DNA of 32,000 nucleotides from Ktedonobacterales bacterium. Its GTDB lineage: Bacteria > Chloroflexota > Ktedonobacteria > Ktedonobacterales > JADMIN01. Where the stretch lies: positions 570,001 through 602,000 of the forward strand of contig CP126532.1 in assembly GCA_030167145.1 (NCBI GenBank), written 5' to 3'. Each line of letters begins with the position of its first letter. Position 1 is the stretch's first letter. Under the pieces are notes generated by a model. That model did no database searches, was not told the DNA's origin, and was given only the letters and a program-made list of their open reading frames with translations. Positions 14,730-30,743 of the stretch are shown in pieces. The position numbers and the translations under genes are program-made.

Positions 14730-15003
14730 AAAAATGATCGTGCACCCACCTTCGATTCGCGCCGTCAACCCCTCATGACGCTCCAGCTCAGACCCGGCAA
14801 TCCCGCGGCACCCAGAGAGGCCCCCTTACCGCTGCTTCCTTCCGGATCTGACGGGGTTCGCGGGCATCTGCCGCGCGGGGACCGAATCCTCATAACCTTC
14901 GCGCCCCTCGGAGTCGGCTAGCTCAAACCTCGGGCGGGGATTCAGCCCCGCTATGAGCGTTTCGGGTACAGGGTAGCCCAAGCTCCCCGCCTAGCACGAT
15001 CTC
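14730..15003 (-). ncRNA. ffs: signal recognition particle RNA, large Bacillus-type (Alu domain plus S domain)
   Basis: The minus strand carries the domain IV core GUCAGAUCCGGAAGGAAGCAGC (about 14831-14852). Its 5' end GUGCUAGGCGGGGAGCUUGGGCUACCCUGUACCCGAAA resembles my recollection of the B. subtilis scRNA 5' Alu domain. The 5' GAUCGUGC (14994-15001) pairs with the 3' GCACGAUC (14736-14743), followed by AUUUUUCUU. It sits upstream of dnaX, as recalled for B. subtilis. Ends are good to about +/-5 nt. Confidence 0.9.
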
Positions 15004-16606: not shown

Positions 16607-17500
16607 GTGATGTTTCCCCAAACGTCCGCGACGCGATCACAACTCGATCCGCTCCATCAGGTGAGCGCGCCAGTTGAGCGCTGGCACAATGGCGAACGCA
16701 GCGCGACACGCGATGAACTGGCGGTGGAGGAGCCGCTAGAGCTACGCACGCGCAGCACATCGGCACAAGGCGCTGCGTCACTCGAGACGCTGGCGGTCAT
16801 TTTGCGCACCCCAGGACACGACCAGGAATTGGCGGCGGGCTTTCTCTATAGCGAAGGGCTGCTGGCGAGCCACGATGAATTGGCGGAGTTGCGGCCAGGG
16901 GTGGACGCCGACGGATTGCCGTCAGACAACCTGCTCGATGTGCTGCCAGGGAGCGGCGTCAACCTGATCCAGCGTATACAGGAATCGGGATATACCCGGA
17001 GATTTGCCGTGAATGCGAGTTGCGGTATCTGTGGCAAGAATACGGTCGAGGCTGCGTGTGCCGTGCTGCCACCGGTCCACGGAGATGCCGTGGTCGTCGC
17101 GCCGGAGACGCTCTACAGCTTACCGGAACAACTGCGCGCGCAGCAGCGGGTGTTCGCGGCGACAGGTGGCCTGCACGCGGCGGGGCTATTCGATACGGCA
17201 GGGCACCTGCTGGGGCTGCGTGAAGATATTGGGCGGCATAATGCAGTGGATAAACTGGTGGGCCGGGCGCTGCTGGATGGCGCGCTGCCGCTGGCGGACC
17301 GGCTGTTGCTGGTGAGCGGACGGCTCTCGTTCGAGATCGTGCTGAAAGCGTGGACGGCGGGGATTCCGTTGGTAGCGGCGGTTTCGGCGCCATCGAGTCT
17401 GGCGGTGGATCTGGCGATGGCAGGTGGCATCACGCTGGTAGGCTTCTTGCGTGGAGAGAATGCGAACGTTTACACCCACCCGGAGCGCGTGCGGCGGTGA
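16607..17500 (+). CDS. fdhD: formate dehydrogenase accessory sulfurtransferase FdhD
   Basis: FdhD signatures NASCGICGK and GRHNAVDKLVG. Start is GTG 16607 or ATG 16610 after GAGAGAGG. Confidence 0.9.
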   Translation: MMFPQTSATRSQLDPLHQVSAPVERWHNGERSATRDELAVEEPLELRTRSTSAQGAASLETLAVILRTPGHDQELAAGFLYSEGLLASHDELAELRPGVDADGLPSDNLLDVLPGSGVNLIQRIQESGYTRRFAVNASCGICGKNTVEAACAVLPPVHGDAVVVAPETLYSLPEQLRAQQRVFAATGGLHAAGLFDTAGHLLGLREDIGRHNAVDKLVGRALLDGALPLADRLLLVSGRLSFEIVLKAWTAGIPLVAAVSAPSSLAVDLAMAGGITLVGFLRGENANVYTHPERVRR

Positions 17501-17802
17501 GGCCACGCCCCCACCTGTGGCGCGAGTGGCACGAATGGTGGGTCGCCTGTTACAAAAACGCCGTGCGCCCGTCTCCCACTTTCGGGAGGGCATGTTGACG
17601 TTCCCAGTGTCGCGGCGTAGAGTACACTTGGGTTTGAATGGATGAGGGACTCCCCGGCCTGGAGTGTTACGTCACGCTGGCTGATTTTTGTACGGTGTGG
17701 GCATCCGTGCCCCGTGCGGATGTAGTCCGCCTGCGTGTAGATGTATACCGAAGGTTTGCGCGTTACCGGTCTGCCGGGCGTGGGAAGATAGGGATTCAGG
17801 AT

Positions 17803-19395
17803 ATGCAGTGCTGGCAGTGTGGCAGGTCTGTGCGGTCCGGGGCAACCCACTGCTCCGCATGTGGCGCCGATCTCACCGAACGGGATGAGCGCGAGCCTGA
17901 AACAGGCGAAAGCAGTGTGTACGACGTTGCGGGCCGTGGGCGGGACGATAGCAGGCATGGTCAGCGCGACCGGCGAGTCTATCCACCGACAGCACGACGC
18001 GGCAGGGATGACGATTGGGGCGATGACAGTATGGAGCAGGACGTTCCCAGACCACGGGCGCGATCACGCGACGGGCGCGACAACGGCTGGAGCCGCTATG
18101 ATCGCGGACGCCGTGGCAGTGCGTGGCGCGAGGAAGAGACCGGTGAAGAAGTCGCACAGGACGAATATGATGAGCCTCGTGGCCGGGGAGCAGCGCGGCA
18201 AGACGAACCGCGCGGGCCAGACCCATTGGACGATCCTCGTGCGCCGGGGGTGTTGCGCCAGTCGCGCCCACGCAGTCAGGTTGAGCGCGGGCGCACTGGT
18301 GATCCTTACGCATCGCGCGATGGCCGTAGCAGCAGTAGCAACAGACGTGGCAATCCCGATGCGGACCGGCATGGTGGGTATTCTCGTGATGGCCGGGGAT
18401 CTGGCCAGCGCGATGGGCGCTACCCACCAGCCGGCGCGGCGGATGGTTACGACGATATGTCGCTGAGCGAAGAGTTTGCGGCACAGGGACGGGATTGGAA
18501 TGCGGGCCGGGAGCGCGGCCCCAGAGATCAGGGTGGATATGGGCGCGCGGGATCGGGCAGCCGTGGCGGCTCGACGGCTGATGCGCGGCGCGAACGTAGT
18601 GGCGCGCGACGAGGTCAGGATGAGCGCATGGGTCGCGGATCCGCCGCTTCTTGGGATGCGGCGGATAGCATGGGCATGGCATCCTGGGAACCAGGGCAGG
18701 GAAGAATTGGGACGTGGGCGGATGGCGATGCCACCTCGGATAAGCCAAAGGGCGGGCGCAAACGATTACTCGTGACGTTGCTGCTGGTGGCGGTGGTGCT
18801 CGTTGGCCTGGTCGGCGTGGCGATACTGAAGCTGCCATCGCTACTCGGCGGCGGTTCCTCCCAGGTGGCGACGGTGTCGGACGATCCCTTCGTCGCGTAC
18901 ACGCCCGGAGCGACACCAACAGCACTCCCACAGTATAAGGTGTATGCCAGCACCACATCCCTATACAGCGTCAACTACCCGCAACAGTGGTCAGTAAAGA
19001 ACAATGCGAATACGAGCGGCGGCCAGTCCGACTATGTGGACATCTTCCAGCAGGCCAGTCCGGTAGTGGTCTTCACGGTGGAGCAGGCGCAGGCGTTTGC
19101 CACATTGACCGATCAGCAGGCGATTGATGCCGAGGTCAATTCGGCGAAGCAGCAAGGCCAGACGTTCACACTCACCGCGAATTCGACGCAGAAAGTCACG
19201 GTTGGTGGCGCGCAGTGGCTGCGGCAGGAATACGATGGCACGGCGAACGGCGTCAAGAATCACGTCGCCATTCTGAGCACGCATCACGGTGGCCGCAGCT
19301 ATGTGATCGTCATGATTAGCACGCCCGACAACTTCGCCAAGGCTGACTCCACCTACTTCCAGCCGATGCTGAAGTCCTTCCGCTTCCAGAAGTGA
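17803..19395 (+). CDS. zinc-ribbon membrane protein: N-terminal Zn ribbon, ~300 aa Arg/Asp/Gly-rich disordered region, one TM helix, C-terminal extracytoplasmic domain
   Basis: ORF 17638..19395(+). Start placed at ATG 17803 (MQCWQCGRSVRSGATHCSACGADL). TM helix LLVTLLLVAVVLVGLVGVAIL. The C-terminal ~170 aa form a globular domain of unknown family, possibly a PsbP/DcrB-like fold (inference). Confidence 0.75.
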   Translation: MQCWQCGRSVRSGATHCSACGADLTERDEREPETGESSVYDVAGRGRDDSRHGQRDRRVYPPTARRGRDDDWGDDSMEQDVPRPRARSRDGRDNGWSRYDRGRRGSAWREEETGEEVAQDEYDEPRGRGAARQDEPRGPDPLDDPRAPGVLRQSRPRSQVERGRTGDPYASRDGRSSSSNRRGNPDADRHGGYSRDGRGSGQRDGRYPPAGAADGYDDMSLSEEFAAQGRDWNAGRERGPRDQGGYGRAGSGSRGGSTADARRERSGARRGQDERMGRGSAASWDAADSMGMASWEPGQGRIGTWADGDATSDKPKGGRKRLLVTLLLVAVVLVGLVGVAILKLPSLLGGGSSQVATVSDDPFVAYTPGATPTALPQYKVYASTTSLYSVNYPQQWSVKNNANTSGGQSDYVDIFQQASPVVVFTVEQAQAFATLTDQQAIDAEVNSAKQQGQTFTLTANSTQKVTVGGAQWLRQEYDGTANGVKNHVAILSTHHGGRSYVIVMISTPDNFAKADSTYFQPMLKSFRFQK

Positions 19396-22525: not shown

Positions 22526-24778
22526 CTACTTGTGCAGCGCGATGAAAAGCGGCGCGAGCACCAGTGTGATCGTGCTGAGCAACTTGATCACCACGTGCAG
22601 CGACGGGCCAGCGGTGTCCTTAAATGGATCCCCGACCGTGTCGCCGACGACGCTCGCGGCATGCGCTGGGGAACCTTTGCCGAGCTTCTTGCCAGATTCA
22701 TCCTTCAAGTAGCCCGCTTCGATGAACTTCTTGGCGTTGTCCCATGCGCCGCCACCGTTGTTCATCACCAGCGCCATCATGATGCCACCAATAGTGCCCA
22801 CCATGAGGAAGCCAGCAGCAGCCTCCGGGCCGAGGACCATGCCTACAAGAACCGGCGTGCCAACGACGAGAATGCCTGGGATCACCATCTGGCGCAGCGC
22901 GGCGCTAGTGCTAATGTCCACGCAGCGCGCGTAATCCGGCTCCGCTGTGCCCTGCATGATCTTCGGGTTCGCCTTGAACTGACGGCGAACCTCCTGGATC
23001 ATACCCTGCGCGGCGTTGCCGACCGCGCGGATTGCGAGCGAGCTGAAGAGGAAGATCAGCATCGCACCGATCATCCCCGCGATGAAGACTGGCGGATTGG
23101 CGAGATTGACGGTGTACGCGCCGATTCTGGCCGTACCGACGGCGTGCTCGTAGATGATGTCGAGATACGCGCTGAAGAGCAAGAACGCGGCCAGCGCCGC
23201 CGAGCCGATGCCATATCCCTTAGTGAGCGCCTTAGTGGTGTTGCCCACGCCGTCCAGCGCGTCGGTGATGTTGCGCACCGACTCAGGTGCGCCGCTCATC
23301 TCGACGATACCGCCCGCGTTATCGGTAATCGGGCCGAAGGTATCCATCGCCAGGATGTAGCCCGCGCTCATCAACATGCCCATCGTCGCGACAGCGGTGG
23401 CGTAGATGCCGGGGACGCTGATCAGGCCGTGGGTTGCGGTGGCGCCGAGGTCAGGATTGGCGAGGGTGCCCAGGAAGTACGAGAGGCCCAGGGCGATGCC
23501 GATAGAAATCACCGGTAGAGCAGTGTTCTCGAAGCCAACCGCCAGACCGGAGATGATGGTCGTCGCCGGACCAGTCTTGGAGGCCTCGGCAATCTCTCGC
23601 ACCGGGCGATAGGTGCCCGATGTATAGTACTGCGTGATCAGCACGAACGCGATGCTATTCAAGATGCCGACGATGCCCGCCAGGCCGAAAACCCACCAGT
23701 GGTCAGGCAGTGTAGGCCGCAGCAGGATATACGAAGTTGCGAAGATGCCGATGGCCGCAAGCACCGCTGTGGTGTAGTAGCCGACGTTGAGCTGGCCCAT
23801 GGCGATCTCGCCAGGATCCCTGCCACCCGCCTGCGCTGGCTCGCGCACAGCAGATTTGCGGACCACCAACACGCCGATCATCGAGCAAATAATGCCCACG
23901 CCCACCGCGACGAGCGGGAAGATGACCCAGCCAGGGCTTTGCTGTGTGCTGCCGAGCGCGAGAGCGACCGATGCGCCCAGAATCATCGCGCCTATATTCT
24001 CAGCGGCAGTGGATTCGAAGATGTCGGCGCCACGGCCCGCGCAGTCTCCCACATTGTCGCCGACAAGATCAGCGATCACAGCGGGGTTGCGGGGGTCGTC
24101 TTCGGGAATGCCCGCCTCGACCTTACCCACGAGGTCCGCGCCCACGTCCGCCGCTTTGGTGTAGATACCGCCTCCAAGCTGCGCGAACAGTGCGACAAAG
24201 CTGGCGCCGAAGCCAAAGCCCACGATGGTCACAGGGGTGGTGATGGCCGCCGCTGTGCTGCTGAGGCCGCCGAAGAGGATATAGACAACGGTCACGCCGA
24301 GTAAGCTGAGTGAGATTACCAGGAAGCCAGAGACCGCGCCGCCACGAAGCGACACCATCAGCGCCTCACCCAGGCCACGCCGAGCGGCGCTGGCCACGCG
24401 AATGTTGGAGCGGACTGCGACCTGCATGCCGATGTAGCCTGCAACGCCAGAGCAGAACGCGCCGATGGCGAAGGCGATAGCAGTCTTGAGCGCGATGGTG
24501 AGAGGCGAATCACTGTTCGCGGTGCTACTGGAACTGAGGAATGCGAGCAGGGCGGCGATAATGATCGCCGCGCCGATGGCGAGAAGTGTAATCGTGCGGT
24601 ATTGTCGGCGCAGATACGCCTGCGCACCGGTGAAGATCGCGTCTGAAATCTTACGCATCTCGGCGGTGCCGGTATCGCGCGAGAGAACCCAGCGCGCGAG
24701 GCCGAACGCGAATCCAATCGCGAGAAGGCTGGCCACAATGGGCACCGCCAGCCACCACATGATACTCAAGGTGTTCAC
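22526..24778 (-). CDS. hppA: K(+)-insensitive pyrophosphate-energized proton pump (membrane H+-PPase)
   Basis: 750 aa polytopic protein with H+-PPase motifs (GGGIYTKAADVGADLVGKVE, DNVGDCAGRGADIFES, DTVGDPFKD). GNTTKA has Lys at the A/K switch position, which marks the K+-independent type. GTG start at 24778. Confidence 0.95.
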   Translation of the reverse strand: MNTLSIMWWLAVPIVASLLAIGFAFGLARWVLSRDTGTAEMRKISDAIFTGAQAYLRRQYRTITLLAIGAAIIIAALLAFLSSSSTANSDSPLTIALKTAIAFAIGAFCSGVAGYIGMQVAVRSNIRVASAARRGLGEALMVSLRGGAVSGFLVISLSLLGVTVVYILFGGLSSTAAAITTPVTIVGFGFGASFVALFAQLGGGIYTKAADVGADLVGKVEAGIPEDDPRNPAVIADLVGDNVGDCAGRGADIFESTAAENIGAMILGASVALALGSTQQSPGWVIFPLVAVGVGIICSMIGVLVVRKSAVREPAQAGGRDPGEIAMGQLNVGYYTTAVLAAIGIFATSYILLRPTLPDHWWVFGLAGIVGILNSIAFVLITQYYTSGTYRPVREIAEASKTGPATTIISGLAVGFENTALPVISIGIALGLSYFLGTLANPDLGATATHGLISVPGIYATAVATMGMLMSAGYILAMDTFGPITDNAGGIVEMSGAPESVRNITDALDGVGNTTKALTKGYGIGSAALAAFLLFSAYLDIIYEHAVGTARIGAYTVNLANPPVFIAGMIGAMLIFLFSSLAIRAVGNAAQGMIQEVRRQFKANPKIMQGTAEPDYARCVDISTSAALRQMVIPGILVVGTPVLVGMVLGPEAAAGFLMVGTIGGIMMALVMNNGGGAWDNAKKFIEAGYLKDESGKKLGKGSPAHAASVVGDTVGDPFKDTAGPSLHVVIKLLSTITLVLAPLFIALHK

Positions 24779-25630
24779 GACTTGTCATTGCCCTCCTATA
24801 TACCTAGGCCATGCTAGATAACGCTGCGCTGCGTTGAGGCAGGGCCGCGAACACGCAGTTGGCCAGTCGCCGGAAGACCTGGCATTGCCGCGCACCATCG
24901 GGAAGAAGGTAGAACCCGGATGCGGGATGAGGAGTCAGTTTCGGTGACTGGCGTACGTGCGGATGCGCTAACCAGGGGATCCTGTGCTACGCGGATAGCC
25001 GCCCACGTGCCATGCAGGTTGTCGCAGACGCTTACATGCCGGTAGGCATGATGCAACGAGTGTAGCATAGTTCAGTGTTCCTGGCAAGCACGCCCGCTGC
25101 CCATCCCATGCGTCAGCCGCATATCTTGTGCCGTGCCTGGTCGTTTGCCACGAGATCCCTTGTGGCCGTGGTTTTCGACAAGTTGCCTGTACGCTCATGC
25201 CCTCTTGCATACGCACGGTGGCTGACGAGCGTCAGCCGAGACACACCTGCGCATAGTACCATCGGCAGCCGAGGAAGTGCGTTGTTCGGTTGCGCGGCTG
25301 AAGGAGCCGCGATGTTAGGTTCATCATGATAGTTGACGCGCGAGTGGGGATGAAGTCCTTTTGCTCGCTCTAGCCCAAGAATAGTGCAATGATGAGGTGA
25401 GCAGACGGTGGAAGCATCGTTGCGTGTCCACATTTCACTGTTCCACAATGCGGGAGCCTGAAAGAATGAAAAAGTGCAAGGTGTAAGACAAAGAACTGGC
25501 TCCAAGGCATGAACAGAGCTGTTGAACCACAAGCCGTCACTTCCGACCGTCATGCGATTGCGCTAGCCGCACGCAAAGCCGCGCGTGCGAGCGCATGTCA
25601 GCGGGCAAATGCCGCGCCTGCGAATCGCGC

Positions 25631-25654
25631 GATCAGCAAGATCAGCAGATCAGC
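25631..25654. repeat. three closely spaced GATCAGC heptamers overlapping the csrA stop codon
   Basis: GATCAGC occurs at 25631-25637, 25640-25646 and 25648-25654. The csrA stop (TGA on the minus strand) is at 25650-25652. Confidence 0.8.
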
Positions 25655-26057
25655 GATAGCGAAATGGCCCTGGGCCGACCGATGGCTGCGAAGGGCGCTC
25701 ATCGGCAGATTGCGGGCGCTGGGTGTAGCGGCTGTTCCCGTTCTGGTAATCACGATAGTCACGGTGGTCACGCTGATCGCGGTTGCCATCCTCACCAGGA
25801 TTGCCCAGGTCCGGCTCGCGCATTGGCGCACGATACGGACGGAAGCTATCGCGCTGCAAGGGCGGTGTTGGGGCGGAGTGCATACCAGGCGCGCCCGTAT
25901 GGCCCTGATTTTCCAGCAACTCTGAGCGGACGATGACAACTTCGGGCGGGGCGCTGATGCCCAGCTTCACTCGCTCGCCCTCGACCGCCAGCACATGAAT
26001 GGTGATCACACCATTCAGCACGATGGCCTCACCGGCCTTCCTACGTAACACTAACAT
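25650..26057 (-). CDS. csrA: carbon storage regulator CsrA/RsmA-family RNA-binding protein with ~85 aa C-terminal extension
   Basis: The N-terminal 50 aa MLVLRRKAGEAIVLNGVITIHVLAVEGERVKLGISAPPEVVIVRSELL align position for position with my recollection of E. coli and B. subtilis CsrA (MLxLxRKxGExI...VKLGIxAPxxVxxxRxE), including the conserved Arg. ATG 26057 follows a GAGGGGG SD by 8 nt. The tail is low-complexity (RDQRDHRDYRDYQNGNSRY). Confidence 0.85.
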   Translation of the reverse strand: MLVLRRKAGEAIVLNGVITIHVLAVEGERVKLGISAPPEVVIVRSELLENQGHTGAPGMHSAPTPPLQRDSFRPYRAPMREPDLGNPGEDGNRDQRDHRDYRDYQNGNSRYTQRPQSADERPSQPSVGPGPFRYR

Positions 26058-26649
26058 ACTCAATACCCCCTCATCGCAGGCGTCCGCGGTCCCTCGCCGC
26101 CTTCACCTGGCCAATTACCTCGCGCGGAGCTACCGCTCGCCGCCTGGATATACCCGGCCTCGGCTCACATCTCGTGCCGCGCCCGTCGAACAACCAATGC
26201 GAGATATGCCGTCACTTGTACAACGTAGATACCGCTTGCGAGTACCGCACCGAAGTACTATTCCTTGCGGATTCGTAGATGACTTCGCTGTGTTCTCGCC
26301 CGGATCGCCGGTGATCCTCCGTTCCATGCGTCTGTACAACTACTAGTTGATACACGCTATCGAGACATGCGGTTCGTTCCGCGCGTGAGCAGTCGCCCAT
26401 TCAACAGAGTCAACTGCTATATACGAGGGACGATACCGCAAGGTTTAGTCCTGCCTCCCGTGTATCACGCGCTCCGATGCAAATGCGATCCTCGATAGAG
26501 ACAGTATGTCGGTAGCAGTCCGGCATTACCATCTCTACCCAAGAACGTGTCACCTGTTCAGGCTGAGTACGGCACAATCGGCGAACAGTCCGCTTCCTGA
26601 TCAGACCCGCCTGTAGGGGGAACATGCACGCTATCTGGTATTGTATACG

Positions 26650-26677
26650 ATAATACTCCCCTGCCAGTAACTCGCAA
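26650..26677 (-). promoter_or_regulatory. candidate promoter (TTGCGA-16 nt-TATTAT) giving a ~585 nt csrA leader
   Basis: This is the best sigma70-like match I could find on the minus strand between the CNNM stop and csrA. The -35 is at 26672-26677 and the -10 at 26650-26655. It is not validated. Confidence 0.3.
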
Positions 26678-26741
26678 TATGCGCTTGCGTCCAAAATGAT
26701 GCGCCACCCGGCATTGCCCCAGCCCCAGTTCATCCCACAGG

Positions 26742-28418
26742 TCAACCCCGCTTCATCTGCGCTGAACCGTGGCCATGGACGCGATGCCGTGCGGGGCGCC
26801 GTTCGCTGCGCACGGCTCGCTGCGGCGTTGTATCAGACGATGTTGCAGAAGAAGTGTCATCTTCTCGGTGATTACCGTCACCATTGCTGGTATTCGTGGG
26901 CTGCGCTGCAGGAAGTGTACCGTTGGTATCGGATAGGCGTGCATCCTCTGCGGTGGCATCCTCCGACGCCGCTGGCGGAGGCAGCATGGGTGGCGCCGTG
27001 TCCGATGACATAGGTAGCGTTGGCGAAATCTCAGAGACGCGCACCGACGTGTCGTCACGGCGTTCGCCTATGTCTGGGATATGGGTCTCGTCTTCGCCGT
27101 CTGCGCTGCCATGGCGCACAATTTTCACTTTGGTCACCCGCCGGCCTCGCGTGCCGATGACAGTAAAGGTGAATTGTTCGGTCTTTACGGCATCACCAAC
27201 CGTCGGAATCTTATCGAGGCGCGCGTAGACGAAGCCGCCAAGGGTGTCGTAATCCTCGCTGGTGAGCTTCGAGGCGAGCACATCGTTGAGGTCATCGAGA
27301 CCGAGCTTGGCGTCCACGATGTATTCGTTTTCGCCTATCTGCTCGAAGAGTTGTTCTTCAACGTCATATTCATCTTGAATATCGCCAACGATCTCTTCCA
27401 CAAGGTCTTCGATGGTCACCAGGCCGGCCACAGAGCCGTACTCATCCACCACAATCGCCATATGTACACGCTGACTGCGCAGTTCGCGCAGTAGGTCGTC
27501 CAGGCGTTTAGTTTCAGGTACGAAGACGGCGGGCCGCGCCAGCGCCTCAACCGAGGCCACCTGCTCATGCGTGGCGACCACACGCAGCAGGTCTTTCGCA
27601 TAGAGCAGACCGATGATGTTATCAATGGTGTCTTTGTAGATCGGCACGCGCGACTGGCCGCCCTGGATGATGAGCTTCATCGCTTCTTCGATGCCCGCGT
27701 CAGATTCAATCGTAATCATGTCAATGCGCGGCACCATCACTTCGCGGACAATGGTATCGCCCAGCTCGAAGACATTGTGAATCAGTTCGCGCTTCTCTTC
27801 TTCAAGGTTGACTTCGTCGCTCTCACCAACGTCCACCAGCATCCGCAGTTCTTCTTCAGTGAGGAAGGGGCCGCGATGCATAGGCTTGCCGCCGAAGAAA
27901 CGCACGATGCCGCTGGTGATCCAGGTCAGCGCGGCTACCACTGGGCGCAGCACGGTTACGGCTGCTTCCACCGGCGTGACGAGGAAACGCGCCCAACGCT
28001 CCGGCGCTTGCACCGCCGCCGTCTTCGGCGTGATTTCGCAGAAGATCAGCACAATCAGCGAGAGCAAGATAGTCGAGATGACTTCGGCGTAATCTTGCAC
28101 CAGGCTCAGGGCCAGAATCGTGGCGACAGTGGAGGCGACGATCACCGCGACATTGCTCATCACCAGGATGGTTGAGAGGAAGTTTTGTGGCCGTTCGATC
28201 AAGTGCAGGATCTGCTCGGCCTTCTTGTCGCCCTCTTCTTCGAGGTTGCGCAACTTAATTCGGTTGACCGAGGTCAGCGCTGTCTCAGCCGCCGCGGACA
28301 TCGCCGCCAACCCTAGCGCCAACAGCAACAGGATCAGCAGAAAGGTGTCTTCACCCGTCCACGGCCGCAATCCGAGAAACGACGCTGCTACGATACCCGG
28401 CCAACTTGAACTATCCAT
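26742..28418 (-). CDS. CNNM/HlyC/CorC-family transporter (DUF21 TM domain + CBS pair + CorC_HlyC) with ~130 aa low-complexity C-terminal tail
   Basis: The DUF21 motif AAETALTSVNRIKLRNLEEEGDKKAEQI is followed by a CBS pair and a CorC-type C-terminal domain (EQFTFTVIGTRGRRVTKVKIV). Confidence 0.9.
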   Translation of the reverse strand: MDSSSWPGIVAASFLGLRPWTGEDTFLLILLLLALGLAAMSAAAETALTSVNRIKLRNLEEEGDKKAEQILHLIERPQNFLSTILVMSNVAVIVASTVATILALSLVQDYAEVISTILLSLIVLIFCEITPKTAAVQAPERWARFLVTPVEAAVTVLRPVVAALTWITSGIVRFFGGKPMHRGPFLTEEELRMLVDVGESDEVNLEEEKRELIHNVFELGDTIVREVMVPRIDMITIESDAGIEEAMKLIIQGGQSRVPIYKDTIDNIIGLLYAKDLLRVVATHEQVASVEALARPAVFVPETKRLDDLLRELRSQRVHMAIVVDEYGSVAGLVTIEDLVEEIVGDIQDEYDVEEQLFEQIGENEYIVDAKLGLDDLNDVLASKLTSEDYDTLGGFVYARLDKIPTVGDAVKTEQFTFTVIGTRGRRVTKVKIVRHGSADGEDETHIPDIGERRDDTSVRVSEISPTLPMSSDTAPPMLPPPAASEDATAEDARLSDTNGTLPAAQPTNTSNGDGNHREDDTSSATSSDTTPQRAVRSERRPARHRVHGHGSAQMKRG

Positions 28419-28493: not shown

Positions 28494-30023
28494 TCAGTCT
28501 GTTTGACCGAACTCAGCATGCTTTTGCGCTGTCTTCGTTTCATTCTCATCGCGCTCATTCTCATCGAGTTCATTCTCATCGCGCTTGCCAGAGTCCGGGC
28601 TATGCGCCGACTTCACTTTGCGGACGGTGCGCGCGGGCATGCCGACGGCGAGCTTGCCGGGCGGCACATCGCGTGTGACGACCGCTCCTCCGCCGGTGGA
28701 GGCGCCATCGCCGATAGTCACCGGCGCGCGCAACAGGGTATCGCACCCCAGAAATACATGCTCGCCAATCTCGGTATGATGCTTCTGTTTGCCATCGTAA
28801 TTCATGGTAATCACGCCCGCACCAACATTCGTGCCAGAACCGATGTTTGTGTCGCCGATGTAGCTGAAGTGATGCATGTCCACATTCTCGCCAATCGTTG
28901 AATTCTTGACTTCACCAAAGTTGCCCACATACGCGCCGCGCTTCAGCCGCGCCCCCGCCCGCAACCTGCTCATCGGGCCGACCCGAGCTCCTGACTCCAT
29001 CTCCGCGTGGTCCAGCCAGGAGGACAGTACCAGGCACTCATCGCCGATGACACTATCCGCGATTACGCTGTTCGGGCCGATCTCACAGCGTTCACCGATG
29101 ACTGTTGCGCCGCGCAGATGGGTTCCGGGCCGCACAACGGTATCCTGGCCGATGCGGACGCCAGCCTCGATATAGGTAGTCGCGGGGTCTTGCACGGTCA
29201 CACCGGAGTGCATCACATCACGCACGATGCGCTCGCGGAGGATGCGTTCGGCATCGGCGAGTTGCACGCGGTCATTGACGCCCATCGTCTCCTCCAACGA
29301 AGCTGTCGCCGTGCTGACTGGCTGACCTTCGCGCACCGCCACATCCACCAGATCCGTCAAATAATACTCCCCGTTGGGATGAAGCTCTAGCCGTTCCAGA
29401 TGTGGCCAGAGCCATGCCCTTTGAAAACAATATATCCCAGAGTTGACTTCGGCAATCCGCAATTCTTCGGGTGTGGCATGCTTCTGTTCCACGATGCCGG
29501 CCACGCGGCCCCGCGCATCGCGCAACACACGCCCATAGCCCGTGGGGTCGGTGGCGATGCCAGTGAGGAAGGTGAGCGTCGCGCCAGTGCGCTGATGTTT
29601 GACCAACAGCGCGCGCAACGTCTCCGCGCGGACCAGCGGCGTATCGCCATACAGCACGAGGATCGTGTCGGGTTGCGCGTCAGCATCCATCCAGGCAGCG
29701 CGGGCGTGGCGTACAGCGTCACCGGTGCCAAGCTGCGGCTCTTGCTCGATGAACGTGGCGGACTCGACGAGAGGAGATGTGGCGAGTGCTGCGCGAACCT
29801 TTTCGCGCTCATGGCCGACGATGACAACGAACCGGGGACTATGGTCCTCCGTATCGCCAGCCTCGGACGCGGCGCCATCCTCTGTGCCAAGCGCCTCAGA
29901 CGCTGCGCGCAACACATGATCGAGCATCGCGCGCCCGCCGACCTGATGTATCACCTTGGGGAAGCGCGACTTCATGCGCGTGCTCTTGCCCGCCGCGAGG
30001 ATGATGGCTCCGACTCGGCCCAT
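28494..30023 (-). CDS. glmU: bifunctional UDP-N-acetylglucosamine diphosphorylase / glucosamine-1-phosphate N-acetyltransferase
   Basis: N-terminal GAIILAAGKSTRMKS..PKVIHQVGG, a left-handed beta-helix hexapeptide region, and an acidic ~40 aa C-terminal tail. Start placed at ATG 30023. TTG 30056 is less likely because it abuts the tRNA. Confidence 0.92.
   Translation of the reverse strand: MGRVGAIILAAGKSTRMKSRFPKVIHQVGGRAMLDHVLRAASEALGTEDGAASEAGDTEDHSPRFVVIVGHEREKVRAALATSPLVESATFIEQEPQLGTGDAVRHARAAWMDADAQPDTILVLYGDTPLVRAETLRALLVKHQRTGATLTFLTGIATDPTGYGRVLRDARGRVAGIVEQKHATPEELRIAEVNSGIYCFQRAWLWPHLERLELHPNGEYYLTDLVDVAVREGQPVSTATASLEETMGVNDRVQLADAERILRERIVRDVMHSGVTVQDPATTYIEAGVRIGQDTVVRPGTHLRGATVIGERCEIGPNSVIADSVIGDECLVLSSWLDHAEMESGARVGPMSRLRAGARLKRGAYVGNFGEVKNSTIGENVDMHHFSYIGDTNIGSGTNVGAGVITMNYDGKQKHHTEIGEHVFLGCDTLLRAPVTIGDGASTGGGAVVTRDVPPGKLAVGMPARTVRKVKSAHSPDSGKRDENELDENERDENETKTAQKHAEFGQTD
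28541..28585. repeat. 15-bp tandem repeat x3 inside the glmU 3' end (encodes RDENE/LDENE pentapeptides)
   Basis: The units are CATTCTCATCGCGCT, CATTCTCATCGAGTT and CATTCTCATCGCGCT, at 28541-28555, 28556-28570 and 28571-28585. Confidence 0.85.
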
Positions 30024-30072
30024 ACTGGTCTGTATCACTCCTGATAACTGCCGCAAAAAACATGAAGAGAAC

Positions 30073-30146
30073 TGGCTCGGGCGCCAGGATTCGAACCTGG
30101 GATCGTGGATCCAAAGTCCACTGCCTTACCGCTTGGCCACGCCCGA
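30073..30146 (-). tRNA. tRNA-Gln (anticodon UUG)
   Basis: The minus strand reads TCGGGCGTGGCCAAGCGGTAAGGCAGTGGACTTTGGATCCACGATCCCAGGTTCGAATCCTGGCGCCCGAGCCA. It folds as a cloverleaf with a 7-bp acceptor stem, anticodon loop CTTTGGA, T-loop GGTTCGAATCC and an encoded CCA. It resembles my recollection of E. coli tRNA-Gln. Confidence 0.93.
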
Positions 30147-30326
30147 ATGCAAACCCTTTCGTTCTTGAAGGATAGCATTCCTTTCTAGGGTCCGCCTATC
30201 CTGCAAAACGCCCTATGAGTGTATCATATCGCCTTCTCATCCGCAACCAACCTGTTGTACACTGTAAGCTCGATCACGGCACTGTGCCGAATAATTCCGG
30301 ACGCACAATTCAGCGAGGAGGTGCGC

Positions 30327-30743
30327 ATGTACACATCAAGAGAGTTGCGAAAGGGCGAGCTTTACTCGCGTGAAGATCTTCGCCAGAAGTTTGATATTAC
30401 AGATGCGACTATCAACACCGGCATATTTCAGCCATCTGGGCATGATTCAATTTGGCTCTTCGTCACAGAAAAGAAGACTCCTGACCGAACACAATATGCA
30501 GATCGACTTGATGGCGATTTCCTTCACTGGGATGGCCAAACATCTGGGCGCAAAGACCAAATAATCATCGAACATGAAAATCTCGGCCTCGAATTGCTGT
30601 TGTTCTATCGCATCTCGAAGTCTGAACACCCAGGTGCGGCTTTCCGATATGAAGGCACCTTTTGCTATGTATCACACTCTGGCGCTGAACCAACCCATTT
30701 TGTGCTTCGACGCACCGACAACTGGGCAAATGACAATGCATGA
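30327..30743 (+). CDS. hypothetical protein (138 aa) resembling the N-terminal module of DUF3427 / SRA-like domains associated with restriction enzymes
   Basis: ORF 30219..30743(+). Start placed at ATG 30327 after a strong GAGGAGGTG SD. GC is low, about 43-48% by hand count. The pattern IWLFVT..K......YADRLDGDFLHWDGQ...ELLLFYR......AFRYEGTF matches my recollection of DUF3427/SRA-type folds. The family assignment is tentative. Confidence 0.7.
   Translation: MYTSRELRKGELYSREDLRQKFDITDATINTGIFQPSGHDSIWLFVTEKKTPDRTQYADRLDGDFLHWDGQTSGRKDQIIIEHENLGLELLLFYRISKSEHPGAAFRYEGTFCYVSHSGAEPTHFVLRRTDNWANDNA

Follow-up and report, generated by a model that had tools for sequence, protein, structure and literature searches.

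CsrA is among the best-studied post-transcriptional regulators of bacteria, and almost all knowledge of it comes from Proteobacteria, where small RNA (sRNA) decoys antagonise the protein, and from flagellated Firmicutes and Epsilonproteobacteria, where FliW is the antagonist. A csrA gene that stands alone in a long, gene-poor stretch of a chloroflexote genome raises the question of what its non-coding surroundings do. The window studied here is a stretch of 32,000 nucleotides (nt) of contig CP126532.1 (positions 570,001 to 602,000, forward strand), from a metagenome-assembled genome of a Ktedonobacterales bacterium (Chloroflexota). In it, csrA occupies positions 25650-26057 on the minus strand (408 bp, 135 amino acids (aa)) and is the sole gene in the interval 24779-26741, between the start of hppA and the stop of a CNNM transporter gene; coordinates and gene content were as an earlier note on this DNA had claimed. 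A 5.07-Mb contig of the genome encodes this 135-aa protein, and so do five shorter contigs from a closely related strain. The earlier note had proposed that the flanking DNA encodes dedicated structured RNAs, such as decoys of CsrA or a long autoregulated leader, in a module possibly acquired horizontally. We consider it rather likely that this is a native csrA locus whose non-coding flanks have two jobs. The upstream flank would carry the csrA promoter and a long leader, and the downstream flank a spacer and a separate leader that belongs to hppA.

One genome per GTDB species was scanned, which gave 80 Ktedonobacteria csrA loci. The order GlmU-CNNM-csrA was kept in about 25 of these 80 loci, from Ktedonobacterales species, and csrA is adjacent to hppA in seven of these genomes and in two metagenome contigs. 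The CNNM proteins of the syntenic relatives are 54-67% identical to that of the window, and residues 1-52 of CsrA are 100% identical across 18 aligned homologues. The GC content at third codon positions (GC3) of csrA is 0.68, the same as in CNNM and GlmU. Since the gene order recurs, the GC3 of csrA is native and the CsrA domain stayed invariant while CNNM diverged, the csrA locus is, judged by these comparisons, native, ancestral and vertically inherited in Ktedonobacterales.

Selective constraint was measured by comparing the window strain (L001) with a second strain (L003-L006). Neutral divergence between the two is ∼13%, as seen in the csrA-hppA spacer (13.6%), at csrA synonymous sites (12.9%) and in the CNNM tail (15%). 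No non-synonymous change was found in csrA. On the minus strand, the upstream flank begins after the CNNM stop with a hypervariable junction (26704-26741), in which 18 of 38 positions differ between the strains, including a 5-nt indel. It is followed by a distal conserved block, D1 (26408-26703), which takes in the promoter region together with the leader's 5' part and in which 2 of 296 positions differ (0.7%; Fisher p=1e-12 against the spacer and p=6e-7 against csrA synonymous sites). A fast-evolving patch (26342-26407) differs at 13 of 66 positions, not significantly unlike the neutral rate, and separates D1 from the proximal conserved block D2 (26058-26341), where 7 of 284 positions differ (2.5%, p=3e-8 against the spacer). 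Codon periodicity was not detected in the substitutions of the upstream flank. Selection here constrains RNA or DNA and not a protein, because D1 is more conserved than synonymous sites and the substitutions keep to no codon phase. A 23-nt inverted repeat (78% complementary; 26430-26452 with 26254-26276) joins D1 to D2 around the fast-evolving patch, and the strain substitutions 26435 and 26272 are its two central mismatches. Judged by these two strains, the upstream flank is under strong purifying selection and has the behaviour of a long csrA leader. A 16-nt identity, ATCTACGTTGTACAAG (26215-26231), with the palindrome TTGTACAA, occurs in the csrA leaders of both the window and locus L012, which otherwise cannot be aligned.

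The gap between CNNM and csrA measures 556-1250 nt in every syntenic locus and 684 nt in the window. Apart from the near-identical strain, a blastn search of the upstream flank against the relatives returned nothing but a 48-nt match in L023; homology was recovered only via an nhmmer profile (E=0.005) and then by a covariance model. A promoter of the form TTGACA-N17/18-TACTCT/TACAGT (TAnnnT) was found 420-1070 nt upstream of csrA in 23 of the 25 syntenic loci. In the relatives the motif (A/U)NCGUAU lies ∼12-14 nt (mostly 13) past the -10 hexamer, with small 5' hairpins of varying loop. The corresponding region of the window (26640-26677, minus strand) holds two overlapping sigma-70-like sites, TTGCGA-N16-TATTAT and CTGGCA-N16-TACAAT, which span 26677-26650 and 26667-26640; the promoter scan gave 4 sites in the csrA upstream region, where 1.1 were expected. 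TACTGG (26664-26669) aligns with the ancestral -10 hexamer. The (A/U)NCGUAU motif is present as a predicted 5'-proximal hairpin, GUAU-ACA-AUAC (26638-26648, minus strand), and no further sigma-70-like site was detected closer to csrA in the window.

Terminators were sought between the distal promoter and csrA. None was found in the window, L041 or L044, and L008 contains only two weak 5-bp candidates. Strong intrinsic terminators stand right after csrA in relatives (L008:6408-6435, L041:6565-6595). The absence of a strong terminator before csrA, together with the strong ones behind it, favours one long transcript. The csrA mRNA thus probably has a 5' leader of ∼580-600 nt, with transcription starting near 26635-26645. 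In the window, a canonical minus-strand terminator after csrA was not found; at ∼25628-25656 three tandem GCTGATC(T) copies run across the csrA stop, followed by the palindrome ATCGCGCGAT.

Further support for a functional leader is provided by a structured element directly before csrA. In a sister clade of 12 species the N-terminal domain of CsrA is 89-96% identical to that of the window, and the final ∼220 nt ahead of csrA show 76% identity. The 12 sequences share a multi-hairpin fold with 97% of cells paired and nine pairs changed on both sides. In the controls, 0-1 of 500 shuffles reached the observed values, and slid controls paired in 33-46% of cells. A covariance model, R1, was built from the proximal 108 nt of these sister-clade leaders. 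It found full-length matches in 13 further loci, all of which encode a long-tailed CsrA; these matches end at the csrA start codon or a few bases from it. The window contains a single match, just where one was expected, full length and with all pairs canonical, at a weak score of 18 bits and a rough E-value of 0.005-0.05. This csrA-proximal element (26053-26158, minus strand) consists of three predicted hairpins followed by the Shine-Dalgarno (SD) sequence GAGGGGG (26066-26072) and ends just past the csrA ATG. In the resulting alignment of 26 sequences, both bases change in 12 of 19 pairs, and none of 500 shuffles reached the observed values. Its covariation score was 0.294, compared with 0.134 for shuffles and at most 0.093 for slid controls.

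CsrA binds GGA in hairpin loops (PMC7652899). Among 24 relatives aligned to R1, GGA occupies the loop of hairpin 1 in 22 (e.g. CAGGAAUGG, CAGGAUCAG, ACGGAGGA), hairpin 2 in 23 (GCAGGGAUUGC) and the SD region in 18 (GAGGAGGGGG). The syntenic loci carry a mean of 6.0 GGA in the last 150 nt before csrA (z=4.4). In E. coli, the csrA leader has four sites through which CsrA represses translation of its own mRNA (Yakhnin et al. 2011, as summarised in PMC7652899). The leaders described here resemble that system in being 5' leaders of csrA with several GGA sites, one of them over the SD sequence, and the sister Ktedonobacterales leaders carry GGA in two hairpin loops and in the SD region. They differ in length (∼0.4-1.1 kb, apparently from a single conserved distal promoter) and in combining a covariation-supported three-hairpin element with a second, distal constrained block. 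Sequence similarity between the two systems is absent, and the copy in the window has no GGA over the SD sequence. At the level of the family, an autoregulated csrA leader is well supported by this conserved arrangement.

The downstream flank is of a different kind. From the csrA stop to the hppA promoter runs a lineage-specific spacer (25088-25649, minus strand), which diverges between the strains at the neutral rate given above and has no Pfam match. Similarity of the spacer to relatives was not detected by blastn or tblastx. By coordinate reading, the distance from the csrA stop to the hppA promoter is roughly 85-450 nt in relatives versus ∼560 nt in the window. The promoter scan identified the putative hppA promoter as TTGCCA-N17-(TG)TACACT (25059-25087, minus strand). 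Most relatives have TTGTCA-N17-TGnTACACT at this place, and the -35 hexamer has diverged in L128 and L191.

This promoter is followed by an hppA 5' leader of ∼275 nt (24779-25058, minus strand). Fifteen instances were collected by profile search and a metagenome pattern scan, and each lies between a sigma-70-type promoter and hppA, directly before the gene; of 120 stretches matched in the metagenome scan only four were real. The last ∼300 nt before hppA are 69-91% identical in nine genomes. Pairwise identity reaches 80% in the 5' conserved block (24964-25058), 71% in the 3' conserved block (∼24776-24854) and 44% in the pyrimidine-rich middle, compared with 54% at third codon positions of hppA. 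The 5' block contains the predicted hairpins P1 (25035-25050) and P2 (24986-25010). P1 (CAUGC-loop-GCAUG) varies in stem length and has loops of 5-9 nt, a variation that suggests an RNA hairpin rather than a DNA operator with fixed spacing. P2 (ACGUGGG/UCCGCGU, with two G-U pairs) is invariant. In the 3' block, the conserved anti-SD-like sequence GCCCUGCCU (24837-24845) is able to pair with the SD sequence AGGAGGGC (24790-24797). This SD sequence bears on the start of hppA, for which GTG 24778 is used here and for which the JGI caller chose ATG 24760. GTG 24778 is the more likely start, since the conserved SD sequence precedes it and the GTG and the next codons are kept in nine relatives.

RNAalifold predicted only short invariant hairpins in the hppA leader, and a search of 4227 Rfam families gave the leader no match. 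Long-range pairing between 5' GGCA..GGGC and 3' GCCCUGCC was considered, but the sequences of L128 and L134 contradict it. A stop at codon 6 in the window and in L018, together with 1-nt indels, excludes a leader peptide. A literature search for an hppA riboswitch or hppA leader found no paper. The leader resembles riboswitch-type and SD-sequestering leaders in its layout of a conserved block behind the promoter, a variable linker and a conserved block on the SD side, in its SD-complementary sequence and in always having the same gene downstream. It differs from them in having neither an Rfam match nor support from covariation, and in its ∼15 instances from one bacterial order. We regard the hppA leader as a conserved candidate for cis-regulation, and it may sequester the SD sequence.

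In L191 (64-2165) and L134 (1266-2216), a HAD-family hydrolase gene and not csrA lies upstream of the hppA leader. The persistence of the leader before hppA where csrA is absent identifies it as a leader of hppA and not as an accessory of CsrA. In L191, dnaA precedes the hydrolase gene, so that hppA lies close to the probable region of the replication origin. The notion of two flanks in the service of csrA did not hold, since the conserved downstream part is the promoter and leader of hppA and the remaining ∼560 nt are neutral spacer. The proposal of structured RNAs in the flanking DNA was right in that the flanks are non-coding, that part of them functions as RNA or as regulatory sequence and that the csrA-proximal part of the upstream flank is a structured RNA.

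Several observations weigh against the account of a csrA promoter and long leader upstream and a separate hppA leader downstream. The constraint argument rests on the single strain pair L001 versus L003-L006, which is its main weakness. The ancestral promoter is degenerate in the window (TACTGG, with no clear -35), and the hexamers that replace it are consensus matches only. We infer the csrA start site, the continuity of the leader and all 3' ends. The 26-sequence alignment was fitted to the R1 model itself, and the E-values of that model are rough. Folding of the csrA leader as a single sequence is unremarkable (z=-1.7); the corresponding values of -2.2 for the spacer and -1.1 for the hppA leader are not decisive. 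A five-helix model of the hppA leader is compatible with the alignment (91.6% paired), and its covariation equals that of shuffles (0.057 vs 0.057), the sequence being too conserved to inform. The 684-nt gap upstream of csrA holds 17 GGA, compared with 16.2 expected from dinucleotide shuffles (z=0.26). In the window, GGA is also missing from all three canonical sites of the proximal element, which read CCAGGCGGCGAGCG in loop 1 (CCAGGCGG), GAGGUAAUU in hairpin 2 and GAUGAGGGGG in the SD region, and only 2 GGA stand in the last 150 nt before csrA.

Other GGA motifs are present in the window leader. Two lie in and after hairpin 3 (26092 and 26085), D2 contains UGGAACGGAGGAUC with three GGA at 26315-26327, and a cluster inside D1 (26451-26600, minus strand) reaches 7 per 150 nt against a background of 1.9 ± 1.4, the third-highest interval on the minus strand. 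The loss of the three canonical GGA suggests that autoregulation is weakened here or runs through other sites, and for this genome an autoregulated csrA leader is weakly supported. The earlier proposal of a long autoregulated leader thus agrees with the length, constraint and partial structure of the leader and with the GGA layout of the relatives, and it is not borne out at the three canonical positions, which are mutated in this copy.

The scheme that we propose builds on what the comparisons show: which genes are present and in what order across relatives, where selection constrains the sequence, that the promoter is conserved, that the proximal element covaries and that the second leader goes with hppA. 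From these we infer transcript boundaries, binding of CsrA and any regulatory mechanism. The csrA RNA would start near 26635-26645 at the conserved 5' hairpin, cross the two constrained blocks parted by the free-evolving patch and end its leader in the three-hairpin element that abuts the SD sequence. This leader is most likely the place where csrA is controlled post-transcriptionally. In the sister species, the GGA in hairpin loops and in the SD region point to a CsrA that represses translation of its own mRNA, as E. coli CsrA does. In the present genome the GGA motifs lie further upstream instead, and autoregulation may be weakened or exerted via other sites. The hppA leader would act as a separate cis-regulatory leader that may sequester its SD sequence.

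An alternative reading is that D1 (∼26408-26640) is an independent sRNA made from the conserved promoter, for example a decoy that titrates CsrA, and that csrA has its own, unrecognised promoter in D2. The distance of the conserved promoter and 5' hairpin from csrA speaks for such an RNA, as does the GGA cluster inside D1. D1 is also nearly invariant between the strains before it gives way to the free-evolving patch. In the sister clades, too, the leader is conserved in a 5' and a 3' block and variable between them, and a GC-AGGAA-GC hairpin occurs in the 5' block of 8 of 11; for this distal block a 5' hairpin and an AGGAA-loop hairpin were predicted, with no covariation. Against an independent RNA stands the lack of a strong terminator between the distal promoter and csrA in the window and three relatives, the two weak candidates of L008 included, while strong terminators follow csrA in L008 and L041. 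A second sigma-70-like promoter nearer to csrA was not found, and the inverted repeat connects D1 with D2. Rfam searches of 24600-26900, at the gathering threshold as well as at E<=10, gave no match, with CsrB, CsrC and RsmX/Y/Z included, and a search of six relatives found nothing in either flank. CsrB contains 22 GGA in ∼370 nt (PMC7652899). The GGA density here is well below that, and several of the motifs lie inside predicted stems.

The RNA described here shares with CsrB, CsrC and RsmX/Y/Z that it is non-coding, tied to CsrA and equipped with GGA in hairpin loops, with a local density of 7 GGA per 150 nt in the window. It differs from them in its missing Rfam match, its far lower GGA density, the absence of a visible terminator of its own and its apparent fusion to the csrA mRNA. 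A CsrB-like decoy, as considered in the earlier note, is not supported, because GGA is not enriched over the gap and no Csr/Rsm sRNA model matches. An independent sRNA made from D1 is a possibility that we take seriously and nevertheless judge to be unlikely.

It is also conceivable that CsrA, encoded next door, binds the hppA leader as a target or is titrated by it as a decoy, which would unite csrA and hppA in one regulatory module. The adjacency of the two genes in seven genomes and two metagenome contigs fits this idea, as does the unusual conservation of the 17-nt SD context of hppA (GUAGGAGGGCAAAGAC), which includes a GGA. However, the leader stays before hppA behind the HAD-family hydrolase gene in L191 and L134, and most syntenic csrA loci have no hppA downstream. 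The sense strand of the leader is pyrimidine-rich and not GGA-rich. In the window it contains only 2 GGA in ∼275 nt, and the GGA of its third hairpin is not conserved. A joint module of csrA and hppA is therefore quite improbable, and we retain the hppA leader as a separate element.

Small protein genes or decayed gene remains concealed in the flanks would offer another explanation. Minus-strand open reading frames (ORFs) of 111 aa (26410-26745) and 146 aa (25113-25553) are present, and the former overlaps the invariant block D1. Pfam at E<=1 matched no ORF in 24779-26741 besides csrA, and neither flank holds a gene call in six contigs or independent assemblies processed by the JGI, ENA and Logan pipelines. 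The flank ORFs have a GC content that is flat over codon positions (GC3 0.50-0.66), while real genes show 0.41-0.49 at second positions and 0.68-0.78 at third positions. Both substitutions in D1 would be non-synonymous if it were coding, the conservation of D1 beyond csrA synonymous sites is unexpected for a coding region, and the 5-nt indel falls in the 5' end of the 111-aa ORF. Conserved protein genes or pseudogene remnants were sought in the flanks of relatives by all-against-all blastp of stop-to-stop ORFs, by tblastx against 206 loci and by substitution phase, and none was found. The statement that the flanks have no protein-like ORF is borne out by these results, and hidden genes are very improbable. 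By the JGI calls, csrA lies between the two largest gaps of a 20-kb stretch (685 and 890 nt), in which genes are typically ∼50-200 nt apart.

The earlier note had also described the interval as an island of lower GC and had pointed to rare codons in csrA. The GC drop is real, with 56.6-57.3% in the flanks compared with a window mean of 62.0% (standard deviation 4.6%, 200-nt windows) and a flank minimum of 49.5% at 25301-25500. It is modest, though, and equal or lower values occur elsewhere in the window, for example 46-51% at 30100-30700 and 52.5% inside CNNM. Non-coding DNA is normally lower in GC in a genome of 62% GC. The two TTA codons and the AGG codon were found at csrA codons 2-6, where they encode the invariant MLVLRRK, for which relatives choose other codons; the GC3 of csrA as a whole is like that of its neighbours. 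A horizontally acquired island with a foreign csrA module, suggested by flanks 5-6 GC points below the window mean, by the AT-rich codons at the csrA 5' end and by the lineage-specific ∼560-nt spacer, is hardly credible in view of the GlmU-CNNM-csrA(-hppA) order in ∼25 species of the order, the native GC3, the CsrA domain identical in 18 homologues and the absence of flanking repeats, a tRNA junction or mobile-element genes around the interval.

CsrA itself conforms to its family. The ORF scores 66.7 bits against the CsrA hidden Markov model PF02599 (cut-off 27, E=1.7e-18), with residues 3-52 aligned to profile positions 1-50 of 53, so that its assignment to CsrA was upheld. The RNA-binding residues L2, L4, R6, K7, V40, I42, R44 and L47 are kept in alignment with RsmE (2jpp) and CsrA (1y00); L4 and R44 are named as critical in CsrA (PMC7652899). 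By Pfam, PDB homologues and alignment, residues 1-52 form the invariant CsrA domain and residues 53-135 a tail rich in P, G, R and D that ends in GPFRYR. At 135 aa the protein thus exceeds the typical family size of ∼60-75 residues by this tail. Among the 18 homologues the ∼80-residue tail is variable and of low complexity, with the conserved motifs PRPYREP, RY-PR-R and a C-terminal GPLRYR. Homologues from the clade are mostly 122-180 aa long, a few reaching 281 aa. A homologue search returned 453 related proteins at E<=0.001; among the 120 matches listed, most have 104-201 aa and the named ones are mostly from Ktedonobacterales. The CsrA of the window is, by these sequence criteria, a member of an uncharacterised long-tailed subfamily, and a literature search found no paper on CsrA in Ktedonobacteria.

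In Bacillus, CsrA's extended C-terminus is the place where FliW binds (PMC7652899). The present protein resembles the CsrA of the FliW-CsrA module of Bacillus and Campylobacter in having a C-terminal extension beyond the RNA-binding domain. It differs in that its ∼80-residue, low-complexity tail has its own motifs and does not align with the extension at the C-terminus of FliW-bound Geobacillus CsrA (5dmb). Neither fliW nor flagellar genes were found within ±10 kb of csrA, in agreement with the earlier note, and neither was seen among the scanned conserved neighbours of the 80 loci. A second arrangement occurs in 26 non-syntenic Ktedonobacteria loci among L049-L086 (e.g. L069:4458-5681, L059, L064, L076 and L080). 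There, a sigma-70-family gene with regions 2, 3 and 4 is followed directly, on the same strand, by a gene for a CsrA of 62-90 aa. The hosts are Ktedonobacteraceae, Thermogemmatispora and Dictyobacter, the arrangement is conserved, and FliW is again absent.

The genes that border the interval are all on the minus strand. Upstream of csrA lies its conserved neighbour, the CNNM/CorC-type transporter gene (26742-28418; Pfam CNNM, CBS and CorC_HlyC in the JGI call; syntenic in ∼25 relatives), preceded by GlmU (28494-30056). The 3' end of the CNNM gene (26742-27280) encodes a fast-evolving, low-complexity C-terminal tail, with 85% aa identity between two strains whose CsrA is identical. Downstream lies hppA (22526-24778; Pfam H_PPase), which encodes a membrane H+/Na+-translocating pyrophosphatase with 77-84% aa identity to relatives over near-full length and 67-71% over shorter fragments (L134, L128). 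Genes within ±10 kb of csrA encode an AP endonuclease, FemAB, GlmU, CNNM, the H+-PPase, an acylphosphatase, GatC, a GatA-type amidase, a histidine phosphatase, a PsbP-like protein, FdhD and TetR. In the whole window, only the signal recognition particle (SRP) RNA and a tRNA reached Rfam gathering scores. The former is a bacterial large SRP RNA (14738-14999, minus strand, 136.8 bits). The latter, tRNA-Gln(UUG) (30073-30146, minus strand), lies upstream of GlmU and has the same place in four relatives (L009, L014, L025, L044). Near it, the stretch of lowest GC in the window (30100-30700, mentioned above) overlaps an ORF at 30219-30743 on the plus strand, a 174-aa JGI gene without a Pfam match. 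A third long gap (∼17500-18167, 667 nt), between a 99-aa gene and the FdhD gene, contains neither a JGI call nor an Rfam match at gathering score.

In an entire order of filamentous soil Chloroflexota, CsrA combines an extremely conserved domain with a long tail. The leader before its gene is very long, under constraint and structured in part, and neither the locus nor the scanned neighbours reveal a known antagonist. As a rather unlikely extension of these findings, offered as speculation, non-flagellated Ktedonobacterales might run a self-contained CsrA circuit without FliW or a CsrB-type sRNA. The 0.4-1.1-kb leader would then serve as a cis-acting sponge and sensor on the csrA mRNA and the tail (PRPYREP ... 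GPLRYR) as a handle for a protein antagonist or for self-inhibition, while the hppA leader would represent a new class of cis-regulatory RNA that senses pyrophosphate, an ion or energy status. For the scanning of genomes, the locus teaches that ORF-poor DNA of lower GC beside a small regulator can be a native leader and not an acquired island. The hppA leader, absent from Rfam, is a candidate for a new cis-regulatory element, and the csrA locus supplies concrete RNA fragments and protein motifs with which the control of CsrA may be approached outside the model groups.

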